From the sequence record OP744025: DNA of 64,000 nucleotides, one strand, 5' to 3'. This DNA is from Escherichia phage A5-4. A model generated the notes under the pieces. That model was not told where the DNA came from, ran no database searches, and saw only the letters and a program-made list of their open reading frames with translations. Position 1 is the first letter of the stretch. Every line of letters starts with the position of its first letter. Of the stretch, positions 4,362 through 46,910 are shown one piece after another. A program made the position numbers and the translations under genes.

Positions 4362-5899
4362 TGTCAAAAATTAGTCAAGAAGAAAAAGATATGATCGAAA
4401 TGCAAGTCTTCGAAGCTGAACGTATTATTGAAGCTGCAAGTCTTCAACTTATGCGCTTCAAAGCGTTCTACGGGGTGATGCTTTCGTCTATGCCTGTTAA
4501 AAAGGCGACGGAATGGTGTAGTACAATGGCGACTGATGGACGTAACCTGTATTACCATCCAGAGTTCGTTGCAGGTATGACAGAAGAACGTAAAAAATTG
4601 GTACTTGATCGACTTTCCAAATCTGAGAAAGATCCTAAAAAGCTGAAAGAGGGTATTGAGTTTATCAATGTCTTCTATCGTCGAAAGACTGCTCGTGAGC
4701 TTGCTCTTATTCTTGAGCATGAATGTGATCATGTGATCTCTGATCATGCTTCTCGTGGCAAGGGGTTTAATCACGAACTTTATAATATTGCTGCGGATCA
4801 TCGTATCAATACAACGGCGGTTCTTATTCACCAAAAGGGGGATGAGTTAGGTAAGGCATGGTTCCCTGCCGGAGAAAGAACAGTATTCGATAAGAATGCA
4901 GAATTTGGATTTATGGCCTGGTCTTACTGTGATTTCCGATTCAAAGATATGTATACTGAGCAGATCTATGAAATCCTGAATAAAGAGCAAGATGATAAAG
5001 AAAAATCCAAAGGGAAAGGTTCTGGTTCTGGAAGTGAAGAGGGTGATGGTGAAGAAGGTGGTCAAGGTCGTAAAGGTGTTGATCAGCACATGGATCAGAA
5101 TGGTGATCCAGAAGATTCAGAAGGTGATGGTATCGAAGATGCACTAGGAATCGACCGTAAAGCGAAGCCTAAGCAAACAGCAGAGGAACGCCAGTATAAC
5201 GATGGGGTTATGCGTCGAGCCATTGAGAATGCCGTACAGGCAGCAGGAAGCGGTGCACCGGAAGATGCTCGTCGTTTTGTAGAAGCGGCGGGTAAACCAA
5301 AGATTAATTATCTTCGTTTGTTGCGTAAAACTATTGAACGTCTGTTCAAAGATGATGTATCATATCGTCGTTTGTCACGCCGTAGTCACTCGTTAACTCG
5401 GACTCTTCGTGGCTCGGGTTACTTATCTGGACGACAGACGATTGGTTTACCCTCAAAGAATAAACAGAAGACTATTCGTGCAGGTGTCTTCTTCGACGTA
5501 TCTGGATCATTTAACGATGATCTGTTAAGACCAACAATGCGTGAGATTCGTGGATTGTGTAATCTTTACGATGAGTTTGAAGTTACAATGGCTTGCTGGT
5601 CAACAAAGGTTGGTAACATTGAAACGTATACGAAGAAGAATGTGAATGAGATTGCTAACTACAAGATCAAGACCACATTTGGTACGGATGTTTCTTGTGT
5701 GTTCGAGGCATTAGATGAAATGAAAGACCCTATGGATCAGATCATCATCTACACTGACGGTTACTTTGCTGATGTATCCCAAAAGAAAGATTGGGCCAAA
5801 AAGTATGGTAAGAATGTTCTTTGGATCATCCTGGGTCGTGGGTCTTCGTTCACCCCGCCTTTTGGCAAGGCAATTGATTTTGACAAGTATCTTAAATAA
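4361..5899 (+). CDS. VWA-domain protein with HExxH motif and acidic linker (CobT-like)
   Basis: ILEHECDH zinc-binding-like motif, Gly/Glu/Asp-rich central stretch, C-terminal MIDAS-like FFDVSGSF; TAATG stop/start overlap with HNH gene. Confidence 0.75.
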   Translation: MSKISQEEKDMIEMQVFEAERIIEAASLQLMRFKAFYGVMLSSMPVKKATEWCSTMATDGRNLYYHPEFVAGMTEERKKLVLDRLSKSEKDPKKLKEGIEFINVFYRRKTARELALILEHECDHVISDHASRGKGFNHELYNIAADHRINTTAVLIHQKGDELGKAWFPAGERTVFDKNAEFGFMAWSYCDFRFKDMYTEQIYEILNKEQDDKEKSKGKGSGSGSEEGDGEEGGQGRKGVDQHMDQNGDPEDSEGDGIEDALGIDRKAKPKQTAEERQYNDGVMRRAIENAVQAAGSGAPEDARRFVEAAGKPKINYLRLLRKTIERLFKDDVSYRRLSRRSHSLTRTLRGSGYLSGRQTIGLPSKNKQKTIRAGVFFDVSGSFNDDLLRPTMREIRGLCNLYDEFEVTMACWSTKVGNIETYTKKNVNEIANYKIKTTFGTDVSCVFEALDEMKDPMDQIIIYTDGYFADVSQKKDWAKKYGKNVLWIILGRGSSFTPPFGKAIDFDKYLK

Positions 5900-5908
5900 G
5901 GAGGATCT

Positions 5909-6280
5909 TTGAGCGAGTATACTTACAAGTTGTCAGTCGGTAGGCGTGGAGTGGTTATGACTATCAACATGATTAATGAAAGTGCGGAGGCTGTGAAATG
6001 GTGGGCCTCCACCTTTAACGGGAAAGGTTTTACTTTATCTCGTCATAAGGTTGGATCAGGAAAGCCAATAGATCTTGTCAAGGAGGACACTTTCTTGTAT
6101 CCTGATCGTATTGCTGATGAAGATATTGATTTCCTATCTGCTACGGTTGGTAGTTTGTTGGATGAGGAGCCAGACATTGTAAGGTTACTCTCTTTACTTA
6201 CAGCAATGTGGTCAGCAGGTCATGATGAGGAAAGTATGCATACGATGGTAAGGAATACGTTGAGACGTTGGTCTAAGTAA
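5909..6280 (+). CDS. hypothetical protein
   Basis: 123 aa; TTG start 4 nt after AAGGAGGA; start uncertain. Confidence 0.45.
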   Translation: MSEYTYKLSVGRRGVVMTINMINESAEAVKWWASTFNGKGFTLSRHKVGSGKPIDLVKEDTFLYPDRIADEDIDFLSATVGSLLDEEPDIVRLLSLLTAMWSAGHDEESMHTMVRNTLRRWSK

Positions 6281-6439
6281 CAACATTTCCTTTATGCCCA
6301 TTTAGGCATACAATACTATATTAGATGATAAACCCCTCAACCTGCTCGGTTGCTTCGACGGGGTTTATATATCTATTAAAAAATTAACCACACTCACATT
6401 CGTTCGGTACTTAATTTTTTAAGTCACCACAAAATTGTG

Positions 6440-6468
6440 TTGACACCACAATGAAACAGATGTAGAGT
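6440..6468 (+). promoter_or_regulatory. sigma70-like promoter
   Basis: TTGACA, 17 nt, TAGAGT. Confidence 0.45.
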
Positions 6469-6600
6469 TAACAAGAGAAGGAAAGTCAATTGGATAAGTT
6501 TTACATATACTGTCTAACATTGGGATTGATCTTCATGATTGTTGGATCAGTGGGTAAAGTTTTACTCAATAGTTTTGGAATTTATTAAGAGGAGATCGTA

Positions 6601-6843
6601 ATGAGAGTACGTCAACATCGTGGTACATTGATCGAAAGTTTGAAAACTGTTAAACAGATTGAAGGTACAAAACAAGCTCTTGTGGATCATATCAACAAAG
6701 AGTTAGGTAAACCGTTTAACTTCTCTGTTGATTCGATCAGTATTGTGGAAAAAGGAGTTGATGAGCGTATCAACTGGAACAACCATCTGATCCTGATTGA
6801 TGGATTTGGTGTATTTGGTTATTGTGATCAACATCCTGTTTAA
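6601..6843 (+). CDS. hypothetical protein
   Basis: 80 aa; AAGAGGAG RBS; promoter near 6440-6468. Confidence 0.55.
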   Translation: MRVRQHRGTLIESLKTVKQIEGTKQALVDHINKELGKPFNFSVDSISIVEKGVDERINWNNHLILIDGFGVFGYCDQHPV

Positions 6844-6852
6844 GAGGTGGTT

Positions 6853-6954
6853 ATGGGTATTAAATGGTGGTTGTTTGTAGTTCCTGCAAATGATAATGCA
6901 GGTGGTGATGGTAAACGTGCAGTCGCACAAACCTATGTCTATGGTCGTCATTAA
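6853..6954 (+). CDS. small hypothetical protein (33 aa)
   Basis: not in >=60 aa track; AAGAGGTGG RBS just upstream of ATG. Confidence 0.3.
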   Translation: MGIKWWLFVVPANDNAGGDGKRAVAQTYVYGRH

Positions 6955-6963
6955 GGGGTTATT

Positions 6964-7371
6964 ATGGATGCTTTTTTGAGTATGGTGTTTGCACTAACAG
7001 TGGTTGATTGGGTATTTATCGGTATCTATTTACTGTGTATTCCTTTTGTGATCTGGTTTTACATTGACCTTTTGGCAGGTACTGGCAAGGTAAGTGGGAT
7101 GGATTACTTCATGTTTATTGTTGTGATCCTGATGGGACCTTTAGCTTTGTTGTCTTTCCTTATTGCAAACATTGTGGTAAGAGGGGGCGCTATCAAACAA
7201 GCCATTCTTTTAAAGGTGAGTGGAACTGATATCGGTAAGAAGATCATTGTCTGGAACATTACACGTAAGCTTAAGAAGACTGATACCAAATGGGTTAATC
7301 CTTTAGAGCGAGCCGTTCAGAAACGTCACAAAGTCTTAATAGGGAGAAAACATGGGAAATGCAATCCGTAA
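6964..7371 (+). CDS. membrane protein
   Basis: 135 aa with hydrophobic helices (VFALTVVDWVFIGIYLL, FMFIVVILMGPLALLSFLIANIVV). Confidence 0.55.
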   Translation: MDAFLSMVFALTVVDWVFIGIYLLCIPFVIWFYIDLLAGTGKVSGMDYFMFIVVILMGPLALLSFLIANIVVRGGAIKQAILLKVSGTDIGKKIIVWNITRKLKKTDTKWVNPLERAVQKRHKVLIGRKHGKCNP

Positions 7372-7516
7372 AATCAAGTGGAAGTTTTGGGAATACGCGC
7401 TGGTTGTTGCTGGATATCTTTTCGGATACGGTCATGAAGTGTACTATGGTGTGAAGCATAATCGAAACATGGCGTACTTCGCGTGGAAGTTTCCAGAGCG
7501 TAAGGAAAAGAAATGA
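7352..7516 (+). CDS. small hypothetical protein (54 aa)
   Basis: GGGAGAA RBS; ATGA overlap with next gene; not in track. Confidence 0.35.
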   Translation: MGNAIRKIKWKFWEYALVVAGYLFGYGHEVYYGVKHNRNMAYFAWKFPERKEKK

Positions 7517-8034
7517 AAGTCACAGAAAGCTTAGTTAAAAAGCTTCGAATAGAAGAACTCCAGGAAGAAAGGCTCGATCCTATCGAGGTTATCATTGAGA
7601 ACTACGAGAATGGTAGAGGTAAGCTTATAGTCACCTCAAGTGGTAAGTCTTGGGTAGGCCAATGGAATGCAATGGGAGGTAGTGTAGAGTCCTTCATCCA
7701 ACGGGTAGATAATGACTACCTTATCGGATGTATGGGGCGAGCGCCTAAATTCATTGAAGACAAGGATGAAGATCCTGTCTTCATTAAGAAGATGATCTTG
7801 AAGCAACGCCGGACCGATTCAATAACTAAAGGGCAGGCGAGATGGGCTTGGGATTATACGGAGACGTTTGCCCCTGACCGTGATCACATCCTTCATGGGG
7901 TTCCTTTTGCGCTTCAACCCCTGAGGGAGTTAGAAGAACCTTGGTATCTGGACTGGCCCACAAAAATCAATACGGATTATGTACACCAAAGTAAGATCCT
8001 GGATGTTGTTCGTAAAGTCATAAAGCCAAATTAA
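7513..8034 (+). CDS. hypothetical protein
   Basis: ORF track, 173 aa. Confidence 0.55.
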   Translation: MKVTESLVKKLRIEELQEERLDPIEVIIENYENGRGKLIVTSSGKSWVGQWNAMGGSVESFIQRVDNDYLIGCMGRAPKFIEDKDEDPVFIKKMILKQRRTDSITKGQARWAWDYTETFAPDRDHILHGVPFALQPLRELEEPWYLDWPTKINTDYVHQSKILDVVRKVIKPN

Positions 8035-8108
8035 TCACAAAAAGGGGTTGACGGGAGTCGCCCCTTAAGTTAGACTTCAGTTATCGAAACAAAGAGGGGA
8101 AACACATA

Positions 8109-8324
8109 ATGACTAAGATTGTAACTTACGTGTTCGAAGGTGATTCTGTACCCAGTGAATTTTTTGAAGATGTTTACAGCAATGATCGTGGAGTGGAACC
8201 TTTAAAGGTTTTACTTGTTGATGTTACCAACTACGGTGATGATATCGAAGTCACAGTGCAAGGAACAACCCGAGAAGTCATTGATGAACGTATGAAGTAT
8301 TGGACACTGTTGCTGAAAAAATAA
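8109..8324 (+). CDS. hypothetical protein
   Basis: ORF track; GAGGGGAAA RBS. Confidence 0.5.
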   Translation: MTKIVTYVFEGDSVPSEFFEDVYSNDRGVEPLKVLLVDVTNYGDDIEVTVQGTTREVIDERMKYWTLLLKK

Positions 8325-8356
8325 AAAAGTTATTTTAAATTACATAGGAGAAAGAA

Positions 8357-8980
8357 ATGGCTATCTATGCAAAACTGAAAGAAAGTAAGAAAAGTTATTT
8401 TATTTCAATGGACCCATCTAACCGACGTATGATTGAAAATCATGGTGATCGATTCATTGTTCGACCTTCTGAGAATAACGATTCTTACTTACGTCCGGTG
8501 GGTCCACGTATTGAGGGTCAGTTCTTAACATCCCGAGATATCGAAGAGTATTTCACATTCTTCCCTAAATGGTCAGCAGAGTCAGCAGAATACATCGTTA
8601 ACCTAGCGGTTCCACGGGGTCAAGTGGCTATCGACAATCAGTATCTGTTAGGGGATGGAAGTGTTAGTGATTACAAAATTAAAACAAGTCATCCGAATAT
8701 GTGGCGACTGTATAACTCTGATAACCCTGACGATTACGTTATGCTCAACCAAAGTAATTTAGAGAAATACTTCACTTTACAGGAAGATAGCTTAAAGAAA
8801 GCATTGGCTAAGTTTGATAATTACACTCCTGCACCTGTAGAAAAAGAACAGGAAGTTGTAGATACGTATGTTTTTGAAGTGAACATTAAGCGCACAGTCA
8901 GAGTTAAGGATGCGGAAGTCACAGAGGACAATCTGGATCAATTCATTGCACAGCTTACTAAACTGGTTAAAGGAGAATAA
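8357..8980 (+). CDS. hypothetical protein
   Basis: ORF track, 207 aa; AGGAGAAAGAA RBS. Confidence 0.6.
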   Translation: MAIYAKLKESKKSYFISMDPSNRRMIENHGDRFIVRPSENNDSYLRPVGPRIEGQFLTSRDIEEYFTFFPKWSAESAEYIVNLAVPRGQVAIDNQYLLGDGSVSDYKIKTSHPNMWRLYNSDNPDDYVMLNQSNLEKYFTLQEDSLKKALAKFDNYTPAPVEKEQEVVDTYVFEVNIKRTVRVKDAEVTEDNLDQFIAQLTKLVKGE

Positions 8981-8983
8981 AAG

Positions 8984-9298
8984 ATGATTATCGATGAAAG
9001 AACGCAAGTAGTTATTGACAAGACTTTCAGTGTACGTAAAAGTATCATTGCAGACATTAGTCTTGAGCGTATCACCGAGGAGGGTATTGATACTTCTGTA
9101 AACTATCCCTTGGTGGAAGAAGACTTCCTACGTAAAATTATGAAGCAGGGTTTTACCGACTACGTTCGGGTAGAAACGAACAAAGACATGTGGTTAGTTT
9201 TTACATTAACTGCGGACACTGATCACGAACAAGAATTCAATGTGGCATTGGCCTGGATTCTTAAATACTGTGATGACAATGATCTGGAGGTGATGTAA
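8984..9298 (+). CDS. hypothetical protein
   Basis: ORF track; tight spacing after previous gene. Confidence 0.55.
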   Translation: MIIDERTQVVIDKTFSVRKSIIADISLERITEEGIDTSVNYPLVEEDFLRKIMKQGFTDYVRVETNKDMWLVFTLTADTDHEQEFNVALAWILKYCDDNDLEVM

Positions 9299-9525
9299 TG
9301 CACAAGCTTCCAAAGAACTTTCGATTCTATCGTGATCTGAAATTAAAGTCTGTACTGTTTGTCGAGAATTTAGAGTTAGAGGAGTTTTATGGTTTTGAAT
9401 GGTACAAAGGGGATATGGGAGAGATGAACTTAGAGAATGTTCTCAAATTTTGGGGAAATGATGATGGGGAAGGATACAGCCCCACACCAAAACACAAGCT
9501 TTCCCTTGTTGAGATTAGACAGTAA
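9298..9525 (+). CDS. hypothetical protein
   Basis: ORF track; start overlaps previous stop. Confidence 0.5.
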   Translation: MHKLPKNFRFYRDLKLKSVLFVENLELEEFYGFEWYKGDMGEMNLENVLKFWGNDDGEGYSPTPKHKLSLVEIRQ

Positions 9526-13675: not shown

Positions 13676-13963
13676 ATGAGCAAAGTAATTGACTGTAAAG
13701 TGTTAACCAAATCATTGTCAATCAGTGAGTGCACCAATGGTTATTGGCTTTATGATGAAACACGCGGCATGAATCTGGCTATGGAAGCTAAAACGGCTGA
13801 GGCGGCGTATGTGCAAGCCCTGGAATACTACCAGAGACGTTTAAAGGAAGTAGAAAACAATTATCAGAATCTCAAAGAGAAAGTAGATCATTTCGTTGGT
13901 CAATTCGTTGACGATGACGAGGAAGACGGGCACTACTGCAACCGCTGCGGATCTTACAGTTAA
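13676..13963 (+). CDS. hypothetical small early protein
   Basis: track ORF starts at 13637 inside hairpin; ATG 13676 after GGAG preferred. Confidence 0.5.
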   Translation: MSKVIDCKVLTKSLSISECTNGYWLYDETRGMNLAMEAKTAEAAYVQALEYYQRRLKEVENNYQNLKEKVDHFVGQFVDDDEEDGHYCNRCGSYS

Positions 13964-13967
13964 GTAC

Positions 13968-14026
13968 TTGCAATTAGTTTTAAGTACTGTATAATGTTTT
14001 ACATCGAGAGCGGGAATAGTTCCCGC
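13968..14026 (+). promoter_or_regulatory. promoter + 5' stem-loop cassette
   Basis: TTGCAA, 16 nt, TATAAT, hairpin GCGGGAA-TAG-TTCCCGC. Confidence 0.6.
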
Positions 14027-14049
14027 CTCACATCAAAGAGATTAAAATT

Positions 14050-14277
14050 ATGGCTATCCTTATTGTTCGTGTATCCGGTACAGTTGGTAACTCCCAGGTT
14101 GTAGCAGTTGTAACAAGCAAAAAGATTAATGAATCTTCTAAAATCTTGAACGAATGGGCCGTTGCTAACTTTGGTCAATGGTCGAGCGTCGAGTATCTCG
14201 AATCTTACCAGGTGCCAACTATTAGCCTAACCGATCTCAATGTTGATCGCCTGTTATGCCTGGATGAATTGATTTAA
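14050..14277 (+). CDS. hypothetical small early protein
   Basis: cassette 13968-14026 upstream; ORF track. Confidence 0.55.
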   Translation: MAILIVRVSGTVGNSQVVAVVTSKKINESSKILNEWAVANFGQWSSVEYLESYQVPTISLTDLNVDRLLCLDELI

Positions 14278-14284
14278 AAAGTAG

Positions 14285-14344
14285 TTGCAAAGTAAAACGA
14301 ATAAAGTATAATACATTACATCAGGGGGAGAAATGATTCTCCCC
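14285..14344 (+). promoter_or_regulatory. promoter + 5' stem-loop cassette
   Basis: TTGCAA, 16 nt, TATAAT, hairpin GGGGAGAA-ATGA-TTCTCCCC. Confidence 0.6.
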
Positions 14345-14361
14345 ACTAAAAGGAAACTAAA

Positions 14362-14505
14362 ATGAAAACTTGTCAGTGTGGTAAAAAGTCTATTGCTGGT
14401 CTGCGTCGCGGTGTTGCTTTATGCCAGTATCATTACAATAGTCAAGTATGGGGTAAAACGTGGGCTGACCAGGTTGAAGCAGCAAAGAAAGCAAAAAGTA
14501 ATTGA
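14362..14505 (+). CDS. small Cys-rich protein (47 aa)
   Basis: CQCGKK-x12-CQYHY; cassette upstream; not in track. Confidence 0.4.
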   Translation: MKTCQCGKKSIAGLRRGVALCQYHYNSQVWGKTWADQVEAAKKAKSN

Positions 14506-14558
14506 CAGCAAGAAGAAAAAGAGTAAACTGTATTACGTAGGGCGGCAATAGCGCCGCC
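14502..14558 (+). promoter_or_regulatory. promoter + 5' stem-loop cassette
   Basis: TTGACA overlapping stop codon of previous ORF; hairpin GGCGGC-AATAGC-GCCGCC. Confidence 0.5.
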
Positions 14559-14582
14559 ACATCAAAGATAGAGAGAATCAAA

Positions 14583-14801
14583 ATGGCCAATATCCGCACT
14601 GTACTGAAAAATGCAAAACAAGTTTTATTTTCTGACGATGAATATTTTAATCGCAATATCAAAGGCGTTCGGAACATTGAGGATGTAAAGGAATTATTTG
14701 GAATCAAAGGTAACGTATATCGTAAAGGATTGCACGGTAATAATTTTGAATATAAGTTGGCTGATAGTGATTATAATTTTACACTGACCACCATTAGTTG
14801 A
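14583..14801 (+). CDS. hypothetical small early protein
   Basis: cassette 14502-14558 upstream. Confidence 0.55.
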   Translation: MANIRTVLKNAKQVLFSDDEYFNRNIKGVRNIEDVKELFGIKGNVYRKGLHGNNFEYKLADSDYNFTLTTIS

Positions 14802-14820
14802 AAGTTTTAATCTAGCGCTA

Positions 14821-14849
14821 TTGACTTAAGCCGATAGTGCTGGCATAAT
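14821..14849 (+). promoter_or_regulatory. sigma70-like early promoter
   Basis: TTGACT, 17 nt, CATAAT; near-duplicate of 15114-15142. Confidence 0.55.
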
Positions 14850-14881
14850 AACTTTTATCAAGAACATCAAAGGAAAGTAAA

Positions 14882-15094
14882 ATGGCTATCATTACTAAAA
14901 TCAAAGTAAACAAAACACTGGTTAAGCTGGAAGAAGTGAAAGCAGGTTATAAAGTATCTTGGTGTGGCATGTATCGGATGTTCACAGATATAGACGATGC
15001 AATCAATTACTACACTAACACGATTAAAAACTTTGTTCGTGCTGATGTGATTATTGCAGTGGAAGCACATAAAGCATCGAAAGAAAGTAAGTAA
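14882..15094 (+). CDS. hypothetical small early protein
   Basis: promoter 14821-14849 upstream; AAGGAAAG RBS. Confidence 0.55.
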   Translation: MAIITKIKVNKTLVKLEEVKAGYKVSWCGMYRMFTDIDDAINYYTNTIKNFVRADVIIAVEAHKASKESK

Positions 15095-38831: not shown

Positions 38832-39379
38832 AACGGTATGTCCTCGTCAACAATAAATTTTATAGCATTCTTTACAGCCGCTTTATTCAGATGTTGAACA
38901 CGCTGGAAGAACATTAGGTTCAAGTCAAGAAGAATATCATCATCTCCGTACAACGCCGTGAAAAGATCAAGCTCTTCATCTGTCGGATGCGTGGGATTCT
39001 CAAATAAGCCCTCAAACACCACCTGGGCCTCATTTCTTTTAGCCAGCGTGGTTGAGTCTCGATAGATATTTAATACCGTGTGTACATCATCTACGCTTAG
39101 GATTTTGACACATTCCAGATCTCCTGTGTCACCATCGAGATAAAGAGTGATCGCAGGAGTTGACCAATTTGATTCACTTATTGCATAAACGTAGATGCTT
39201 TTGCGATTACCAACTGCAATAGACTCTTCAATTTTCTTTTCTGCCGCCTTAAAGAAAGGTTGGTGTTTGATCCAATGCTCCCAACCAATCCAACGAGCAC
39301 CCTTACCATACGCATTCAGCACATGATTCTCAATGTTACGTTTACTCTTTAAAACCTCCATAAAAGAAAAGCCAGCCAC
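38828..39379 (-). CDS. hypothetical protein
   Basis: 183 aa; 4-nt overlap. Confidence 0.55.
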   Translation of the reverse strand: MAGFSFMEVLKSKRNIENHVLNAYGKGARWIGWEHWIKHQPFFKAAEKKIEESIAVGNRKSIYVYAISESNWSTPAITLYLDGDTGDLECVKILSVDDVHTVLNIYRDSTTLAKRNEAQVVFEGLFENPTHPTDEELDLFTALYGDDDILLDLNLMFFQRVQHLNKAAVKNAIKFIVDEDIPF

Positions 39380-39400
39380 CTTTCGGTGACTGGCCTAGAG

Positions 39401-39868
39401 TTAGCTACTAATCACCACGAATGCAGTAACTATAGCATACAGAAATCCAATTGCAACAAAAATTATCATAATGGGGTCAGAGGTTACTCGCTTAAGTTTT
39501 CCTAAGAAAGTTGATCGGTATTTGTGTTCCTTCTCCATTTTGTTTATCAAAATGATGAAAGAGTTGATATGAATATCTTCAGCACTCTCTGCAAAAGGTG
39601 TGTACTTGAACGTACCTTCTGTATTTGCAACAAAGCTGCGATGATACTTTTTACCGTCATAACTTTCTATAAGAAGACCATCCTTTGTCACCCGATAACT
39701 AACTGAACGGAACTTGTCATAAAAAACGTATGCCCTGAATCCATCTTGATCGGGAACAGCCTTTCTGACGTAGCCGTCAAAAAACTCCAATCTCTTTCCA
39801 GAATTCAGTTCCAAGTTGTCAGCTAACATAGGGAGTTGACTTACGTATGTAAAGTACATAATGATCAT
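39401..39868 (-). CDS. hypothetical protein with C-terminal TM helix
   Basis: ends IMIIFVAIGFLYAIVTAFVVISS; first gene after intergenic hairpin 40014-40039. Confidence 0.55.
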   Translation of the reverse strand: MIIMYFTYVSQLPMLADNLELNSGKRLEFFDGYVRKAVPDQDGFRAYVFYDKFRSVSYRVTKDGLLIESYDGKKYHRSFVANTEGTFKYTPFAESAEDIHINSFIILINKMEKEHKYRSTFLGKLKRVTSDPIMIIFVAIGFLYAIVTAFVVISS

Positions 39869-40013: not shown

Positions 40014-40039
40014 ACCTATGGACCAGATCTGACCCATAG
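40014..40039 (-). terminator. terminator-like hairpin
   Basis: CCTATGG-12nt-CCATAGG inverted repeat just downstream of gene ending at 40061; moderate T-richness. Confidence 0.35.
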
Positions 40040-40060
40040 GCTATACCTTAATGTGAAATT

Positions 40061-40639
40061 TTATTCATTTCCCCGATATTTTTGAATTGCGATCGAAGTC
40101 CTTGGTTCAGCCAGTCCAGTTCCATATGCATACCATTTGCCAGTGAGTGTTTTTCGAGCACCGTAGGACCCAATCTCCATGTCGTCACAATAAACATCGT
40201 AACCGATCGGGGTCTTAACTAAAAAGAGTACATTACGAGGAATCCCTAAGAGGGTAAACATCGATATGGCATCTTTTGCGATCTCGTGAGAAATCTTCTC
40301 TGCATTCTTTTTACTGGTTGCACTTCTAAACAGTTCCATCTTTAAGAAGATATTGAAATGAATATCATCAAGAACCATCTCATCACGGAAGCATGGGGTC
40401 ACAGCCATCCAACTGCCATCTTCCAACTTCCCTTCTTTGTCGAGTTGGAGGAATGATTGCTCTGCGGAAGCCACTGCATATTTCCCGTTCTGGACAATTC
40501 GAAGATCAGTAACATCTTCGGGGCATGTATGATCCATAGCATCATCATCCACATAGCTTGGGACAACCTTATCATTGAAACCTTTACATTTCCACCAACT
40601 GTGGGCATCAATAAACAATGTGAAGTCGATGTTTGACAT
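40061..40639 (-). CDS. class-II aminoacyl-tRNA-synthetase-like (AsnA/AspRS motif-2-like) protein
   Basis: TPCFRDE resembles the GPCFRNE motif of class IIb aaRS/AsnA catalytic core; only about 190 aa; start moved to ATG 40639 (GAGG RBS). Confidence 0.35.
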   Translation of the reverse strand: MSNIDFTLFIDAHSWWKCKGFNDKVVPSYVDDDAMDHTCPEDVTDLRIVQNGKYAVASAEQSFLQLDKEGKLEDGSWMAVTPCFRDEMVLDDIHFNIFLKMELFRSATSKKNAEKISHEIAKDAISMFTLLGIPRNVLFLVKTPIGYDVYCDDMEIGSYGARKTLTGKWYAYGTGLAEPRTSIAIQKYRGNE

Positions 40640-40640
40640 T

Positions 40641-41144
40641 TTAGCCTCGCTTACCATTCTGGAATGCACGTTTAGTAATTTTTGACATAACCATCAGGTC
40701 TTCTATTGAAGTGCTTGGATGATACTTATTCAGGTAGGCTTCCATAGCGCCGACCAGATCAGAAAGCTCTACCAACTCCATGATCTTACATTTTTGTTTA
40801 GCTGCATCCTTGAGTTCATCAAGTTCTTCTTGAATCTTAGTGATCTCTCCAAGCTCTCCGCGAGGGAAAGTATCCAGATGATAACCAGGTTTTTGTTCTT
40901 CAATGCCCTCATGTCCGACAACACGAAATTTTCCGGCAGCGAAACGCCAAACACCTTCAAAATACACAATGTAATGTTCCGACTCTGCAATGAAGATAGT
41001 GTCGAAATTTTTAAATTTAAAAAATCCTTCGATAAGATTATCTTCTGTACTGAAACTTCCTAAGAAGTTGAGTTCTTGCTCCGTATGAAATTCCATAACC
41101 ATATTTTCGTTCTGGAGTTTCGTCAGCAATTTTAAAATTTTCAT
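40641..41144 (-). CDS. hypothetical protein, possible MazG-like all-alpha NTP pyrophosphohydrolase
   Basis: EELDELKDA ... ELVELSDLVGAMEAYL pattern; start moved to ATG 41144 with AAGAGGAGAG RBS. Confidence 0.3.
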   Translation of the reverse strand: MKILKLLTKLQNENMVMEFHTEQELNFLGSFSTEDNLIEGFFKFKNFDTIFIAESEHYIVYFEGVWRFAAGKFRVVGHEGIEEQKPGYHLDTFPRGELGEITKIQEELDELKDAAKQKCKIMELVELSDLVGAMEAYLNKYHPSTSIEDLMVMSKITKRAFQNGKRG

Positions 41145-41155
41145 TTTCTCTCCTC

Positions 41156-41644
41156 TTATGGGCAACACCGTGGAGATCTTCCACAGAAGAATTGCCAATT
41201 GGTTTCTGAGTCTTTGTAATTTACAAACCCTATCCTTCCGCACCCTTTCCCACTACAAACCGCTTCACGAGGATGATAGTCTATACTGCAAGAGTGGGGA
41301 TGATCAAACGCTTCTCGTATTTCAACACAGAGTCTACTTAACCAAGCGAACATTTTTGGCATAGAAGCTTCAAGGAGTTTAAGTTCATCGACCGTAGGTT
41401 TGTCTTTCTCCATGAAGAAGTCATTTATCTCGGAAAACAAAATCACGTTTTGAACTATACCGCTGCTTACCTTGTAAGAGAACTCCTCAGTAAGTCTCAC
41501 AGTAACTTCCTCTATCAATTCTTTTTCATTATCTTGATCTTTTGCTAATCTTTCTTCAATCCATCGGATAACGAAGAATCTTTCTCTCTGAACATCCATG
41601 TTCAAAGTATTGATTATTTTTTCATAGATTAGGTTTCCTTCCAT
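41156..41644 (-). CDS. hypothetical protein with C-terminal Cys/His cluster
   Basis: HPHSCS...CSGKGCGRIG...CGRSPRCC. Confidence 0.5.
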   Translation of the reverse strand: MEGNLIYEKIINTLNMDVQRERFFVIRWIEERLAKDQDNEKELIEEVTVRLTEEFSYKVSSGIVQNVILFSEINDFFMEKDKPTVDELKLLEASMPKMFAWLSRLCVEIREAFDHPHSCSIDYHPREAVCSGKGCGRIGFVNYKDSETNWQFFCGRSPRCCP

Positions 41645-42756
41645 ACCTTGTCTTGTGCCTCCAGGATAAGTTTTTCAACAATCTTCAGATCTGTTTTCTT
41701 TGGTAAGCTCGATTGCTTATAAAGAACATCTGTGATCATTTTATCTTTTTCTTCAGCCCAGTCAACAATTTCTTCATAGCGGTATTCACCATTTCGGATT
41801 GCGAGGAGTTCTTCAGCGTCTGGTCGATTAACTAAAACTTTACCTTCTGTGAGGATTTCTTCACCCATCCGAAGAAGCCGGACCAAATGCATAGCATGTT
41901 TAGTGTCGTAACCGAACTTCTCTTCCAGTTCATGACGCTTCTCGTTACGATTCTTAACCCATTCCCAATAGTTGTGGTGTTTCTCCTTGGCCCATTTATG
42001 ATCGTCAGCACAATACTTAACAATCATCAGTGTCTTACCTCTTTTAACTTCATCTGGGATTTCTTCATAGTCCAGCTTACGGATAGAACCATCTTTGTTA
42101 AACATAGGTTCAACATTTTCACGACGATCCTCTACAACGCCGTAAATGTTACTGCCGTAATGAACCAAAGTACAGAAGCCTTCCATGTTTTTAAATTTAC
42201 GAACAAAGTCTTCGTACTTCAACTCACCTTCTCCGAGATAGCTCTGCACCAGACGGAAATAGTCAAATTGAGTTGGTGGCTCTTTTGGTTGCGGATTATT
42301 AATGTGTTTGTTGTGACCCTTGATCCGCTTTAACTGAGACATTGCATAACCACTGAAGCGAAATGCAACTTCACGAGACAGTAAGGAGTAGAAATGTTCT
42401 TTCATCTCTTTCCAAGCTTCGTGCTCGTACAATGTGGCTTTCGGATCAGTAAAACCCAGTTCAATGATATTTGGGTTCATCTTCGAAAACAGTTGAAGGA
42501 AAGTTCCCAATTCGTAGATCTTGGCATCCTCTTCACCAGGGATGTTTAATTCAGTAACCTCTTTGAATGGGGTACGAACCACATTTGGGGTTGCAACAAA
42601 AACCCCACGGATATCAATATCACTACCTTCGTTATTCGTACCATACGCATGAGATCCTGCCAGACTCAACATCAGTACCTTCGCCACGTCTGGATGATTT
42701 TCCATCTTCTCTACGATACTTTTTACCTTTCCAGCACTCACAACTGAATTTTCCAT
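41629..42756 (-). CDS. Pol-beta superfamily nucleotidyltransferase
   Basis: LAGSHAYGTNNEGSDIDIRGV = G-S-x10-D-x-D NTase signature; 375 aa. Confidence 0.65.
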   Translation of the reverse strand: MENSVVSAGKVKSIVEKMENHPDVAKVLMLSLAGSHAYGTNNEGSDIDIRGVFVATPNVVRTPFKEVTELNIPGEEDAKIYELGTFLQLFSKMNPNIIELGFTDPKATLYEHEAWKEMKEHFYSLLSREVAFRFSGYAMSQLKRIKGHNKHINNPQPKEPPTQFDYFRLVQSYLGEGELKYEDFVRKFKNMEGFCTLVHYGSNIYGVVEDRRENVEPMFNKDGSIRKLDYEEIPDEVKRGKTLMIVKYCADDHKWAKEKHHNYWEWVKNRNEKRHELEEKFGYDTKHAMHLVRLLRMGEEILTEGKVLVNRPDAEELLAIRNGEYRYEEIVDWAEEKDKMITDVLYKQSSLPKKTDLKIVEKLILEAQDKVWKET

Positions 42757-44415: not shown

Positions 44416-44741
44416 TTTTTAACCCCAAAGATCTTAGTTAGTAATTTATCATTCCCTATAGTAAGGCCACATAAACTTTTTATACCGAACACCAAGTACG
44501 ACCCAATTGTAACACAGATAATAATTGGGTAAACAAGATACCAGAAGAATGTTGCACATAGCCAACCAACCATGACCATACGTAAATTTACATTTTCATT
44601 GTTCAGGGGTTCTAGGATATACAGGTCTTCACTATCCTTGGGGAAGGGGATGTTGAACCCCTTCTGCCGTAATTTGATCAATAAGAACCAAAGTGGACAA
44701 CTGATCAAACAACCTATTAAATAACCTTCAACCATTTTCAC
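44412..44741 (-). CDS. membrane protein, paralog family E
   Basis: ORF track; 4-nt overlap. Confidence 0.55.
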   Translation of the reverse strand: MKMVEGYLIGCLISCPLWFLLIKLRQKGFNIPFPKDSEDLYILEPLNNENVNLRMVMVGWLCATFFWYLVYPIIICVTIGSYLVFGIKSLCGLTIGNDKLLTKIFGVKK

Positions 44742-45978
44742 TCTCCTTCAACTTGTCAAGGTATTGTGTAACGTATCTTACTTTTACATTTCGGATTCTG
44801 CTCTTGATCTCATTTGGACGTCCCGCGAATTTTTCAGAAATCTCTTTACTTTCTTTTGAGATTGCAACACTGTTCTGGATAATCCCTGCCAGTGCTGAGA
44901 ATAATACCAAAGGCTGAGTGTAACTGTCAAACATTTTTTCAGGACCACGACCACGAGAATCACAGATGCAAGCATCAATGAATTCAGAAAGGAATGCTTG
45001 GTCCTTTTCACCACGTAAGGCTACTAACAAGTCATAAACTTTCTTCGGCTTCATTTCTTTGATACGGTGGAGTCGCGTATGATGCTCAGTCACAGCTAAA
45101 GCCAACTTCTTCCAACTATTGGGGACACCAAAGCGATCACAAACTTGTTCAGTTAACTTGATACCGTGCTCTTCGTGACCGTGCAGTTTACCCGTTACCC
45201 AGTAAATACATTTACCTAAGTCGTGACACAGAACTGCCCACTTCACAGCTTCACTTGCACGAGTCGCCTGGGCATAATCCATGCAAAGTAAAGTGTGAAC
45301 AAATGCATCACCTTCAGGATGGTGCTCCTTGGGTTGAACAACATCGTATAAATCCACAAGCTCAGGAAATTCTCCCAGTTGAGTCAACATACGGATCATT
45401 ACCGAAGGTTTATTCATTTCTGACTGATCACTAAAGCATTTCTTAATCTCTGCAAATTTACGCTCTTTTGGAAGTGCACTTAAGTCTACATTTTGGCACA
45501 TTCCCCAAGTGTCATGATCAATTGTAAACTCACCGCCGTATCGGGCGTGTAGTCTGGCTAATCGGTATACACGTAAAGGGTCTTCGATAAATGCTTTAGT
45601 GGATACACAACGTAACCGACTATTTTCAATATCAAGTACACCACCACAAGGGTCAATAATTTCACCCGTGGAAAGATCCTTGGCAATAGCATTAATGGTC
45701 AAATCTCTTCGCATCAGATCTTGTTCGATTGTAACGTCTGGAGAGAACACAACCTCGAAGTCGTGATAACCAGGGCCTGTTGATCTTTCTGTCCGAGCAA
45801 GAGCGTACTCTTCTTTGGTGTCTGGTTCAAGGTACACAGGGAAAGCTGCACCAACCTTAGTGAATCCTTTTTCAATCATCTCTTCGTGGGTCGCACCAAC
45901 AACCACGTAGTCTCGATCCTTACTTTCAACGCCCATTAGTTCATCACGAACTGCTCCACCTACCAAGTAAACTTTCAT
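44728..45978 (-). CDS. cca: tRNA nucleotidyltransferase (CCA-adding enzyme) with C-terminal HD domain
   Basis: MKVYLVGGAVRDELMG N-terminal head motif, later HDLGK; start moved to ATG 45978 with AAGAGGAGAAAG RBS. Confidence 0.8.
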   Translation of the reverse strand: MKVYLVGGAVRDELMGVESKDRDYVVVGATHEEMIEKGFTKVGAAFPVYLEPDTKEEYALARTERSTGPGYHDFEVVFSPDVTIEQDLMRRDLTINAIAKDLSTGEIIDPCGGVLDIENSRLRCVSTKAFIEDPLRVYRLARLHARYGGEFTIDHDTWGMCQNVDLSALPKERKFAEIKKCFSDQSEMNKPSVMIRMLTQLGEFPELVDLYDVVQPKEHHPEGDAFVHTLLCMDYAQATRASEAVKWAVLCHDLGKCIYWVTGKLHGHEEHGIKLTEQVCDRFGVPNSWKKLALAVTEHHTRLHRIKEMKPKKVYDLLVALRGEKDQAFLSEFIDACICDSRGRGPEKMFDSYTQPLVLFSALAGIIQNSVAISKESKEISEKFAGRPNEIKSRIRNVKVRYVTQYLDKLKESENG

Positions 45979-46238
45979 ACTCTTTCTCCTCTTAAGTTTA
46001 AAGACCAATCTTTTATTTCTTCTTTCCAGTTTGTATTTCTCTCAATGTCTTGCTTTTGACCACGAAGATAGTTGATGATCTCAAGCGGGTCTTGCTTAAC
46101 AAAAGAAATATTATCGATCGGACACTCAACTAACTTAAGCATCCTTTCAAAACGATTATACTCATCTTCTGACTTTGATGCAACAGGAATAACATCGTAA
46201 TCTTCAAGATTATTGAGAGTTTCAAGAGTGACCTTCAT
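45975..46238 (-). CDS. hypothetical protein
   Basis: start moved to ATG 46238 (GAAGG RBS); ATGA overlap with cca. Confidence 0.45.
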   Translation of the reverse strand: MKVTLETLNNLEDYDVIPVASKSEDEYNRFERMLKLVECPIDNISFVKQDPLEIINYLRGQKQDIERNTNWKEEIKDWSLNLRGERV

Positions 46239-46357: not shown

Positions 46358-46393
46358 TAAAAAAAAAAAAAAAAAGGCCACCCGAAGGTGACC
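46358..46393 (-). terminator. strong rho-independent terminator after methyltransferase gene
   Basis: minus strand hairpin GGTCACCTTCGGGTGGCC followed by T18. Confidence 0.75.
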
Positions 46394-46400
46394 TTTAAAT

Positions 46401-46910
46401 TTAAGGGTGAATCCAGTAAAAAGGTTTTGTTAAACCAAGTTTACCTTTTTTATCCCAAATAAAATAACCATATGCTGCACCATCTGTTTTACCATCGTCA
46501 GTAAAAGAAGGTCGCTTAGATAAAGTAACTAAGTGATCAACAGGGTATTGCTTCCAGAACTCAACACGTTTGGTACTCTCAAGGAAACCTAAACGAAGAA
46601 GCATGATCACTACATCAGCATCCTTGTGCGCTTTTTCTACAAACTCTTGAGCTAAATTGTAAGGTGGATTAGTTAACACACAATCTACCTTATTGTATTT
46701 AGTTGCAAGATAATCAACACCTTCTTGAATCTCTCCCCAGGCTGAACCAATTGGCATTTCATTATAAAAACTTCCAGAGGCTCTGCAAGGTTCCAGATAA
46801 GTCCAATCCTGACGGATTGGAACTAAATTCAAGAAAGCATCTACTGCCCATTTCGGAGTTTCATAGCGATCATTTTCACGGCGCTCTGCTTTAGGTTTCA
46901 ATGCTGCCAC
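46401..46910 (-). CDS. phage-type DNA N6-adenine methyltransferase
   Basis: EPCRASGSF (motif I-like) and TNPPY (motif IV); 169 aa. Confidence 0.7.
   Translation of the reverse strand: MAALKPKAERRENDRYETPKWAVDAFLNLVPIRQDWTYLEPCRASGSFYNEMPIGSAWGEIQEGVDYLATKYNKVDCVLTNPPYNLAQEFVEKAHKDADVVIMLLRLGFLESTKRVEFWKQYPVDHLVTLSKRPSFTDDGKTDGAAYGYFIWDKKGKLGLTKPFYWIHP

Follow-up and report, generated by a model that had tools for sequence, protein, structure and literature searches.

In a 64,000-nucleotide (nt) stretch of Escherichia phage A5-4 (sequence record OP744025; the whole stretch is hereafter called the window, and all positions refer to it), a small gene encodes what is, judging by sequence comparison, a stand-alone paralog of class II aminoacyl-tRNA synthetases (aaRSs) with an unusually small core and an unprecedented partner. 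Homologs of this aaRS-like gene, which are found in big phages plus a few genomes of the Candidate Phyla Radiation (CPR) and DPANN, are almost always accompanied by, and sometimes fused to, a gene for a HisE/MazG-like domain, and the two products probably form a two-part enzyme rather than the tRNA synthetase of the database labels. The near-obligate pairing or fusion with a HisE/MazG-type protein is a new architecture among aaRS paralogs and the main new finding of this analysis. An earlier note on this DNA had recognized the size and type of the core but had missed the adjacent partner, which is the most informative feature. The module formed by the two genes comprises the following parts:

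40061-40639, minus strand: coding sequence of the 192-amino-acid (aa) minimal class II aaRS-like (SerRS-core-like) protein, stop codon at 40061-40063 included
40641-41144, minus strand: partner coding sequence, 167 aa plus stop; a homologous coding sequence is annotated in phage UPEC06, and the product matches PHROG 6408
40644-40892, minus strand: HisE/MazG-like all-alpha domain, 83 aa, resembling nucleoside triphosphate (NTP) pyrophosphohydrolases; C-terminal part of the partner
40893-41144, minus strand: N-terminal extension of the partner, about 84 aa, specific to this phage group (homologs in two loci of two clades)

Pairing was analyzed in 85 loci that had been assembled for clustering of open reading frames (ORFs), namely 80 IMG/VR loci, four phage records, and the window. 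A six-frame scan with hidden Markov models detected the partner domain on the same strand and within 2 kb of the aaRS-like gene in 83 of them (within 150 nt in 66), with the partner on the upstream side in 58 and on the downstream side in 25. It is also carried by 18 of 20 loci from metagenome-assembled genomes (MAGs), and overall it is present in 101 of 105 loci. The reverse test gave a similar picture, as 79 of 80 viral loci seeded with the partner have an aaRS-like gene within 4 kb. Fusions occur in both settings: the partner is joined to the C-terminus without a linker in two of the 85 loci (L004 and L064), the former being the 266-aa protein 149L of Microcystis phage MaMV-DL01, and in-frame fusions of the same order, also linker-free, are present in five MAG loci. 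Among the 150 best representatives of clusters at 50% identity, nine (about 6%) are linker-free fusions, always in the order aaRS-like protein followed by partner. It is very likely that the aaRS-like protein functions jointly with the partner, and we infer that the two may form a physical complex.

The partner domain is 81-83 aa long and contains the invariant residues Y4, H5, G15, K19, E22, E23, E26, E42, L43, D45, G48, T73, F77, G80, and R82. Five of these form an EExxE...ExxD metal motif (E22, E23, E26, E42, D45) that is invariant both in a set of 25 and in a set of 43 partner sequences, and that lies on helices 1 and 2 of a three-helix AlphaFold2 model with a predicted local distance difference test (pLDDT) score of 91.4. 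Matches to the Pfam family PRA-PH (phosphoribosyl-ATP pyrophosphohydrolase) were obtained for 23 of 25 members, mostly below threshold; the homolog from locus L071 exceeds the PRA-PH cut-off, MazG is matched as well, and several members are labeled PRA-PH or "NTP pyrophosphatase" by JGI. The C-terminal 83 aa of the A5-4 protein match PHROG 6408 (E=8.5e-36), to which no function is assigned there. When the partner sequence was searched against the PDB, only chance coiled-coil matches came back, and the N-terminal extension has no Pfam match. The partner is thus classified by its sequence as HisE/MazG-like, for which the motif evidence is firm and the profile and fold evidence is supportive rather than decisive. 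In other lineages this domain carries N- or C-terminal regions of quite another kind (140-315 aa in total in L023, L025, L038, L049, and L002).

Two other identities of the partner were considered and rejected. An acyl or peptidyl carrier protein is contradicted by the conserved acidic metal motif and by the lack of an invariant serine: position 44, the Ser of ELSDL, may be S, C, T, or A and is located in the middle of a helix, so it is not a phosphopantetheine site. A split-off N-terminal arm of SerRS was prompted by the upstream position of the partner gene in 58 of 83 loci, but the domain is acidic (median pI 5.35), carries HisE/MazG motif and fold signals, and is C-terminal in every fusion.

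With regard to the aaRS-like protein itself, an AlphaFold2 model built on the family alignment (mean pLDDT 94.6) has the antiparallel beta-sheet catalytic fold of class II, and motifs 1, 2, and 3 are all present. Foldseek searches against the PDB retrieved the catalytic domains of PylRS and SerRS (E ~1e-9, TM ~0.7), and 185 of the 192 residues of the model superpose on the SerRS catalytic core; fold-comparison scores were clearly lower for AsnA (13.8), archaeal AsnA (14.0), EpmA/GenX (13.9), and class IIb synthetases (~12.6-14.5). SerRS was also the best match of the family profile in the PDB (E=2e-6). Alignment with hhalign gave 91.7% for E. coli SerRS (E=7.7e-7, residues 17-185 against 186-406), compared with 77.6% for E. 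coli AspRS, over the N-terminal half only, and 0.4% for E. coli AsnA. Votes of individual domain models are mixed, all of them within class II: serS, pheS, aa:ACP ligase, aspS, PylS, and EpmA in NCBIfam, and tRNA-synt_2, tRNA-synt_2d, and tRNA-synt_2b in Pfam, with 19 of 40 members matching tRNA-synt_2 (D, K, N; best E=8.7e-8).

The protein is therefore almost certainly a class II core derived from SerRS. The earlier note had proposed a minimal class II core and had read WMAVTPCFRDE (residues W77-E87, SWMAVTPCFRDEMV) as motif 2, and both proposals hold, the latter segment being a true motif 2 that aligns with TPCFR-S-E of SerRS. The closeness to class IIb synthetases and AsnA that it had suggested does not: the comparison of profiles and structures with class II cores, also proposed there, does find similarity, but class IIb/AsnA is not the best subclass, and the hhalign and fold-comparison scores rule it out as the closest kin. 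The aaRS-like protein does not combine core-wide profile similarity to that subclass with an above-threshold match to Pfam tRNA-synt_2. One class IIb-like trait is present, a short motif-2 loop.

The active site of SerRS can be followed position by position in the aaRS-like protein:

40559-40561, minus strand: codon of Pro27, the motif-1 proline (KGFNDKVVPSYV), invariant in 40 members and aligned with GYxxxxxP of SerRS
40460-40468, minus strand: codons of S58-A59-E60, the counterpart of the TxE motif with which SerRS binds serine (E. coli T237-A-E239), by hhalign and invariance
40334-40399, minus strand: motif 2, T81-E102 (TPCFRDE...H94...F98-L-K100-M-E102), by hhalign and invariance
40154-40177, minus strand: E155-I-G157-S158-Y-G160-A-R162, corresponding to E355-ISS...QARR of SerRS, the segment of the Mg/ATP-binding glutamate, by hhalign
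40100-40126, minus strand: motif 3, Y172-G-T174-G-L-A-E-P-R180, by hhalign and invariance

In E. coli SerRS, the seryl moiety is contacted by T237, E239, R268, E291, and S391, the adenine stacks on F287, and Mg is held by a glutamate (E349 in the S. aureus enzyme), the E. coli equivalent of which is E355 (bioRxiv 10.1101/586255). In the alignment, for which the E. coli residue numbers were confirmed, S58-A-E60 corresponds to T237-A-E239, T81-PCFR85-D-E87 to T264-PCFR268-S-E270, F98 to F287, E102 to E291, E155 and S158 to E355 and S358, T174 to S391, and R180 to R397. S58, E60, R85, F98, E102, E155, T174, and R180 are invariant in 40 diverse members, in which 23 columns are invariant altogether, and P27, R85/E87/F98, and G173-T-G-L-A-E-P-R180 are invariant or nearly so. 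The serine pocket, defined by the TxE motif and the equivalents of E291 and S391, is represented by S58, E60, E102, and T174. Because all ligand-contact positions of SerRS are invariant in the family, the protein is predicted to bind ATP and serine and to form seryl-adenylate, and it is likely to be an active adenylating enzyme.

What the core has lost is equally informative. Because the protein begins about 15 residues ahead of motif 1, it lacks the entire coiled-coil arm by which the N-terminus of SerRS recognizes tRNA-Ser, and no Seryl_tRNA_N match was found in it, whereas the genuine SerRS encoded in one MAG locus (L095) does show one. About 65 residues of loops are trimmed (192 aa versus ~257 aa for the catalytic part of E. 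coli SerRS), the motif-2 loop is six residues shorter than that of SerRS and acidic (D91 in at least 90% of members), and H94 stands in for the second motif-2 arginine. No anticodon-binding or other additional domain was detected in the protein, 185 of whose 192 residues correspond to the SerRS catalytic core; the absence of an anticodon-binding domain had also been read correctly before. The serS equivalog model TIGR00414 gives 20.7 bits against a cut-off of 301.65, and there is no HisRS-specific signal. Given the lost arm, the short motif-2 loop, the trimmed loops, and the low serS score, the protein should not, on its predicted architecture, be filed as a seryl-tRNA synthetase, and the canonical SerRS or HisRS of the database labels is rejected. 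An aaRS paralog with a non-canonical substrate is plausible. In addition, the L095 locus, on a 905-kb Woesebacteria contig, contains a full-length SerRS (Seryl_tRNA_N plus tRNA-synt_2b; 13819-15093) 5 kb downstream of the fused gene, and since both coexist there, the minimal protein does not replace the housekeeping enzyme.

The gene is part of a large and real family, the conservation of which is far beyond chance. The A5-4 protein matches the PHROG 4806 profile over its full length (E=6.8e-56; its residues 2-187 align with positions 3-186 of the 190 in the profile), and tblastn found homologs in 273 phage records, with hosts including Escherichia, Acinetobacter, Caulobacter, Pectobacterium, Cronobacter, Microcystis, and Brevundimonas. 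A large protein collection contains 775 matching clusters at 90% identity, and an exhaustive profile search retrieved 1,685 clusters at 50% identity with E<=1e-3, and 1,184 with E<=1e-30. Most of the members listed have ~175-200 aa, and longer ones, up to 301 aa, include fusions. A scan of one genome per prokaryotic species yielded only 20 loci, all in MAGs. That the gene is homologous to aaRSs is already on record: PHROG 4806 is labeled "histidyl tRNA synthetase", the related phage UPEC06 annotates a "putative seryl-tRNA synthetase", and other phage homologs are labeled hypothetical, seryl-, or histidyl-tRNA synthetase. Full-text literature searches turned up neither experimental nor comparative work on the family or on its pairing, and the literature covered included a comparative survey of jumbo phages (PMC7824862) in which the family is not treated. 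A review from 2022 on aaRS paralogs names only SerRS2, SLIMP, and the ligases of the amino acid:carrier protein type (aa:CP ligases) as paralogs of SerRS (PMC9437257).

The local layout in the window is compact. The ORF runs from ATG (40639-40637) to TAA (40063-40061), with the coding part at 40064-40639; the earlier note had placed it exactly, stop codon included, at about 190 aa and without giving the strand. Two signals accompany it:

40645-40648, minus strand: GAGG Shine-Dalgarno sequence of the aaRS-like gene, 5 nt before the ATG and within the last codons of the partner gene, by direct reading
40014-40041, minus strand: hairpin like a terminator, with a stem of 12 bp, a loop of 4 nt, and a T-rich tail, 20 nt past the stop codon of the aaRS-like gene

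The stop codon of the partner gene and the ATG are 1 nt apart, and this arrangement, with the Shine-Dalgarno sequence inside the end of the partner gene, is suggestive of translational coupling. The hairpin predicts that the module closes a transcription unit, and the pair is the final unit of a minus-strand gene run in the window. A second strong terminator-like hairpin (39369-39396, minus strand; 12-bp stem with seven GC pairs) follows a membrane-protein gene at 39401-39868, and the genes of this run appear to be organized in short units, each with its own terminator. The window shares 97.7% identity with Escherichia phages A73 and W70 and belongs to a Vequintavirinae-type E. coli myophage.

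Taken together, these features lead us to a tentative proposal, whose chances we put somewhat short of even, that the product of the gene is the catalytic subunit of a conserved enzyme of two components, sometimes fused, which combines serine adenylation with nucleotide-directed chemistry. Subunit A (192 aa) would be a minimal SerRS core that keeps motifs 1-3 and all ATP and serine contacts but has lost the tRNA arm, and subunit B would be the 83-aa domain of the partner, of HisE/MazG type and with an intact acidic metal site. A would bind ATP together with L-serine, or with a small amino acid much like it, and yield enzyme-bound seryl-adenylate and pyrophosphate (PPi). Because A has no means to recognize tRNA-Ser, the seryl group or the adenylate phosphate would then be passed to a nucleotide-type acceptor, which B would bind or make by converting an NTP to a nucleoside monophosphate (NMP) and PPi. 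The product might be a seryl-nucleotide or a dinucleoside polyphosphate rather than Ser-tRNA; alternatively, a bound NTP could attack the adenylate and give Ap4N. B would handle a nucleoside triphosphate or pyrophosphate. Nucleotide-directed chemistry is favored because NTP, NMP, and PPi are the only compounds common to class II adenylation and HisE/MazG reactions, and genomic context leans the same way, with AAA_28 and radical-SAM genes in CPR/DPANN and NMNAT-Nudix and Nampt genes in phages; we put the chances that the acceptor is a nucleotide at a little under even. More doubtful is the fuller version, a natural enzyme system not recognized before, in which A, as the smallest class II adenylating core of aaRS type known, and the HisE-like subunit B would share a composite active site and make a seryl-nucleotide or a dinucleoside polyphosphate that acts as a cofactor, signal, or counter-defence molecule. 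If true, it would be a system common to large phages and genome-reduced CPR/DPANN symbionts and a new branch of aaRS paralog chemistry, with no tRNA synthetase involved.

Several observations weigh against this proposal. The serine assignment derives solely from an alignment of 21-26% identity and from conservation, and we know of no seryl-nucleotide metabolite with a known role. There is no conserved third gene in more than nine of ~35 clades, and since no such gene extends beyond about a quarter of the clades, no pathway can be read from the context. The neighbourhood leans equally to tRNA/RNA repair and to nucleotide metabolism, and 31 of 84 loci (15 of 35 clades) have tRNA genes within 10 kb, in some cases on both sides.

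The tRNA and RNA-repair surroundings belong to the strongest of the other explanations, which we consider unlikely: a non-discriminating minimal enzyme that aminoacylates tRNA or protects its 3' end. Here the core would serylate, or at least bind, the CCA end common to all tRNAs, whether of phage or host, within a toolkit for tRNA upkeep and repair, with the partner stripping a blocking pyrophosphate or supplying or destroying nucleotides at the 3' end. Its purpose would be to counter tRNA-targeting defences, such as pyrophosphorylation by toxSAS or extension of the MenT type; toxSAS enzymes reportedly pyrophosphorylate the tRNA CCA end (PMC11559606). The SerRS descent of the core fits such a role, and so do the RlaP and CCA-adding genes among those upstream of the module in the window:

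41156-41644, minus strand: 162-aa protein of PHROG 12113 with a Cys-rich C-terminus (CSGKGCGRIGFVNYKDSETNWQFFCGRSPRCCP) like a zinc ribbon, between the RlaP and partner genes
41629-42756, minus strand: RlaP-type RNA 3'-end nucleotidyltransferase (PF10127, E=6.9e-19), ~1 kb upstream of the module
44728-46008, minus strand: CCA-adding tRNA nucleotidyltransferase with HD domain, ~4 kb upstream of the module

Enzymes of the RlaP type extend damaged 3' ends of RNA with nucleotides and repair damaged tRNA ends (PMC12776372), and the RlaP and CCA-adding genes here resemble a tRNA-end repair cluster; the PHROG 12113 protein recurs near the module in only four clades. Across loci, RlaP recurs in nine clades, the CCA-adding enzyme in six, and T4-type RNA ligase 1 (Rnl1) in four. 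Of 268 tRNA genes near the module, 263 are on the module strand, 10 loci have tRNA genes within 2 kb, and in Caulobacter phage CcrSC the aaRS-like gene lies inside a tRNA array. However, tRNA density within 10 kb of the module (~17 genes per 100 kb) does not rise towards it, there is no bias to tRNA-Ser (20 of 268), no tRNA gene was found anywhere in the 64-kb window, and the window and its close relatives have none within 10 kb of the module. A close tie to tRNA genes in general, or to tRNA-Ser in particular, is therefore rejected, and the links of the module to tRNA and RNA-repair genes are regional only. The core itself lacks a tRNA-binding arm or basic appendage, its motif-2 loop is short with a conserved acidic character, CPR genomes have a full-length SerRS alongside the module, and tRNA charging has no evident need of an NTP pyrophosphohydrolase. 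In some huge-phage loci (L038, L040, L054, L074, L075, and L082), the arrays near the module include tRNAs with a CUA anticodon (amber suppressors, reported as 'tRNA-Pyl' by ARAGORN), which hints at stop-codon recoding in those phages.

A sensor that resembles HisZ and transfers nothing is improbable. In this case, the core would do no more than bind an amino acid and ATP, with the adenylate perhaps arising as a bound effector, and would allosterically control a house-cleaning NTP pyrophosphohydrolase according to amino-acid or ATP status. There is a precedent in HisZ, a class II paralog without adenylation activity that regulates an ATP-using enzyme of the pathway to which HisE belongs (PMC9437257); the partner here is HisE-like, and near-obligate pairing would suit a regulatory complex. 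Yet HisZ does not adenylate, whereas all catalytic and ligand residues are invariant in the present family, including both arginines and the Mg-binding glutamate, and no homolog of HisG came to notice among the genes that recur nearby.

Slightly less probable still is a protein- or carrier-directed ligase similar to EpmA, which aminoacylates EF-P, or to the aa:CP ligases, with the helical partner or a host protein as the seryl acceptor. The aa:CP ligases, which are cores of SerRS type lacking a tRNA domain, have proteins of ~80 aa as their targets (PMC9437257), five aaRS-like members weakly match the NCBIfam aa:[ACP] ligase model, and the invariant partner residues K19, Y4, H5, and T73 could accept an acyl group. 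On the other hand, the ELSDL serine of the partner is variable and mid-helix, as described above, and its full NTP-pyrophosphohydrolase metal motif would be superfluous in a passive acceptor. The aa:CP ligases reportedly depend on a Cys-Glu-Cys zinc site, which is not conserved in the aaRS-like family because its sole invariant Cys is C83.

Finally, a class IIb/AsnA-like ligase or amidating enzyme, in which a carboxylate (e.g., the Asp side chain) is activated for attack by ammonia or an amine, is highly improbable: the motif-2 loop (13 residues from R85 to F98; 12 in classes IIb and IIc) is closer to class IIb/IIc than to SerRS, the tRNA-synt_2 matches point the same way, and ELGSYGxR locally resembles ELSSMGIR of AsnA, but the hhalign results given above for AsnA and AspRS argue against it and the conserved pocket matches the serine pocket of SerRS one for one.

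The wider context of the module offers further observations that bear on nucleotide metabolism and on cellular homologs. NMNAT-Nudix recurs in seven clades and Nampt in five; neither of them, nor T4-type RNA ligase 1, was found in the 64-kb window, and examples of NAD-salvage or Rnl1 genes within 10 kb of the module in viral loci are at L031 5719-6843, L066 1167-2642, and L060 4097-5278. The region that contains the module is a general auxiliary or counter-defence region of large phages rather than one pathway. Neither the window nor nine MAG loci yielded a riboswitch or leader RNA from which a ligand could be named. A weak match to the Rfam suhB/mmgR sRNA at 46360-46431 on the minus strand (25.6 bits against a gathering threshold of 41, E=0.082), mostly in an intergenic gap and slightly entering the first gene, is probably due to chance.

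Some MAG loci of the module are genuinely cellular. In the CPR/DPANN loci, a P-loop kinase-like AAA_28 gene and a small radical-SAM gene adjoin the module, which is often fused there; the radical-SAM proteins have 225-256 aa and weak PDB matches to MoaA, QueE, and others. Radical-SAM and AAA_28 neighbours are located as follows:

L095: 7243-8013
L096: 8791-9474 and 7466-7996
L099: 8792-9478
L100: 8810-9475
L104: 5324-6451

A radical-SAM homolog is also present ~1 kb from the fused gene of MaMV-DL01 (L004), and another in L017. In two Saccharibacteria MAGs (L107 and L109, ~5600-9450), the module is in a ~4-kb island on the opposite strand between fusA (EF-G) and the rpoC side, where rpoC is preceded by two short genes that are candidates for rpsG and rpsL by size and position. 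Between these two MAGs, the flanking genes are 94-98% identical, the module genes 71-73%, and the adjacent AAA_28 gene 59%; because the identities of the module and AAA_28 genes fall below those of the flanks, a fast-evolving or exchanged island is suggested.

As hundreds of phage genomes label the gene "seryl-tRNA synthetase" or "histidyl tRNA synthetase", and as its product, by its predicted architecture, cannot be a canonical synthetase, claims that such phages encode an aaRS of their own need correction. The combination of an aaRS-like core with a HisE/MazG partner points to unexplored chemistry of amino acids and nucleotides, and its settings, among tRNA-repair and NAD-salvage genes in big phages and in small islands in CPR/DPANN, could indicate a counter-defence or salvage role.

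Among known systems, the closest is SerRS of class IIa in its common bacterial form (E. coli; P. horikoshii, 2DQ0), with which the family shares motifs 1-3, TPCFR(D/S)E, the TxE-type motif, and all residues contacting seryl-adenylate and Mg-ATP; in contrast, SerRS has the coiled-coil arm, ~65 more core residues, and a longer motif-2 loop, and the aaRS-like protein has a HisE/MazG-like partner instead. The aa:CP ligases of the Bll0957/Atu2573 type are derived from the zinc-dependent methanogen-type SerRS, have ~300 aa (296 aa in 3MEY) compared with ~190 here, require zinc, and act with a phosphopantetheinylated carrier, whereas the present family lacks a conserved zinc ligand set and its partner is NTP-pyrophosphohydrolase-like without an invariant Ser. 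HisZ, which works with HisG and HisE, does not adenylate, while the present family has invariant catalytic residues and no associated HisG, and its nearest relative by sequence is SerRS rather than HisRS. AsnA and EpmA (PoxA/GenX) embody the same concept of a stand-alone class II core whose aminoacyl-adenylate is used outside tRNA charging, but they have ~295-330 aa, other pockets, and no HisE-like partner, and AsnA is remote in hhalign. In MazZ/PurZ of Z-genome phages, a HisE/MazG-type enzyme makes the NMP substrate of an adjacent ATP-dependent amino-acid-ligating enzyme; PurZ is an adenylosuccinate-synthetase homolog and not a class II aaRS core, and the resemblance to the module is one of analogy only, with no homology of the pair claimed. 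Class II urzymes are engineered HisRS-type cores of ~120-140 aa that retain amino-acid activation with parts of the fold missing. In comparison with these laboratory constructs, the aaRS-like protein is natural, strongly conserved, and complete in its three-motif core at 175-200 aa, and a natural class II core of ~190 aa that is under strong purifying selection and keeps the whole SerRS active site would show how small a functional class II domain for catalysis can be, which bears on the debate about urzymes, minimal aaRSs, and the origin of the synthetases.

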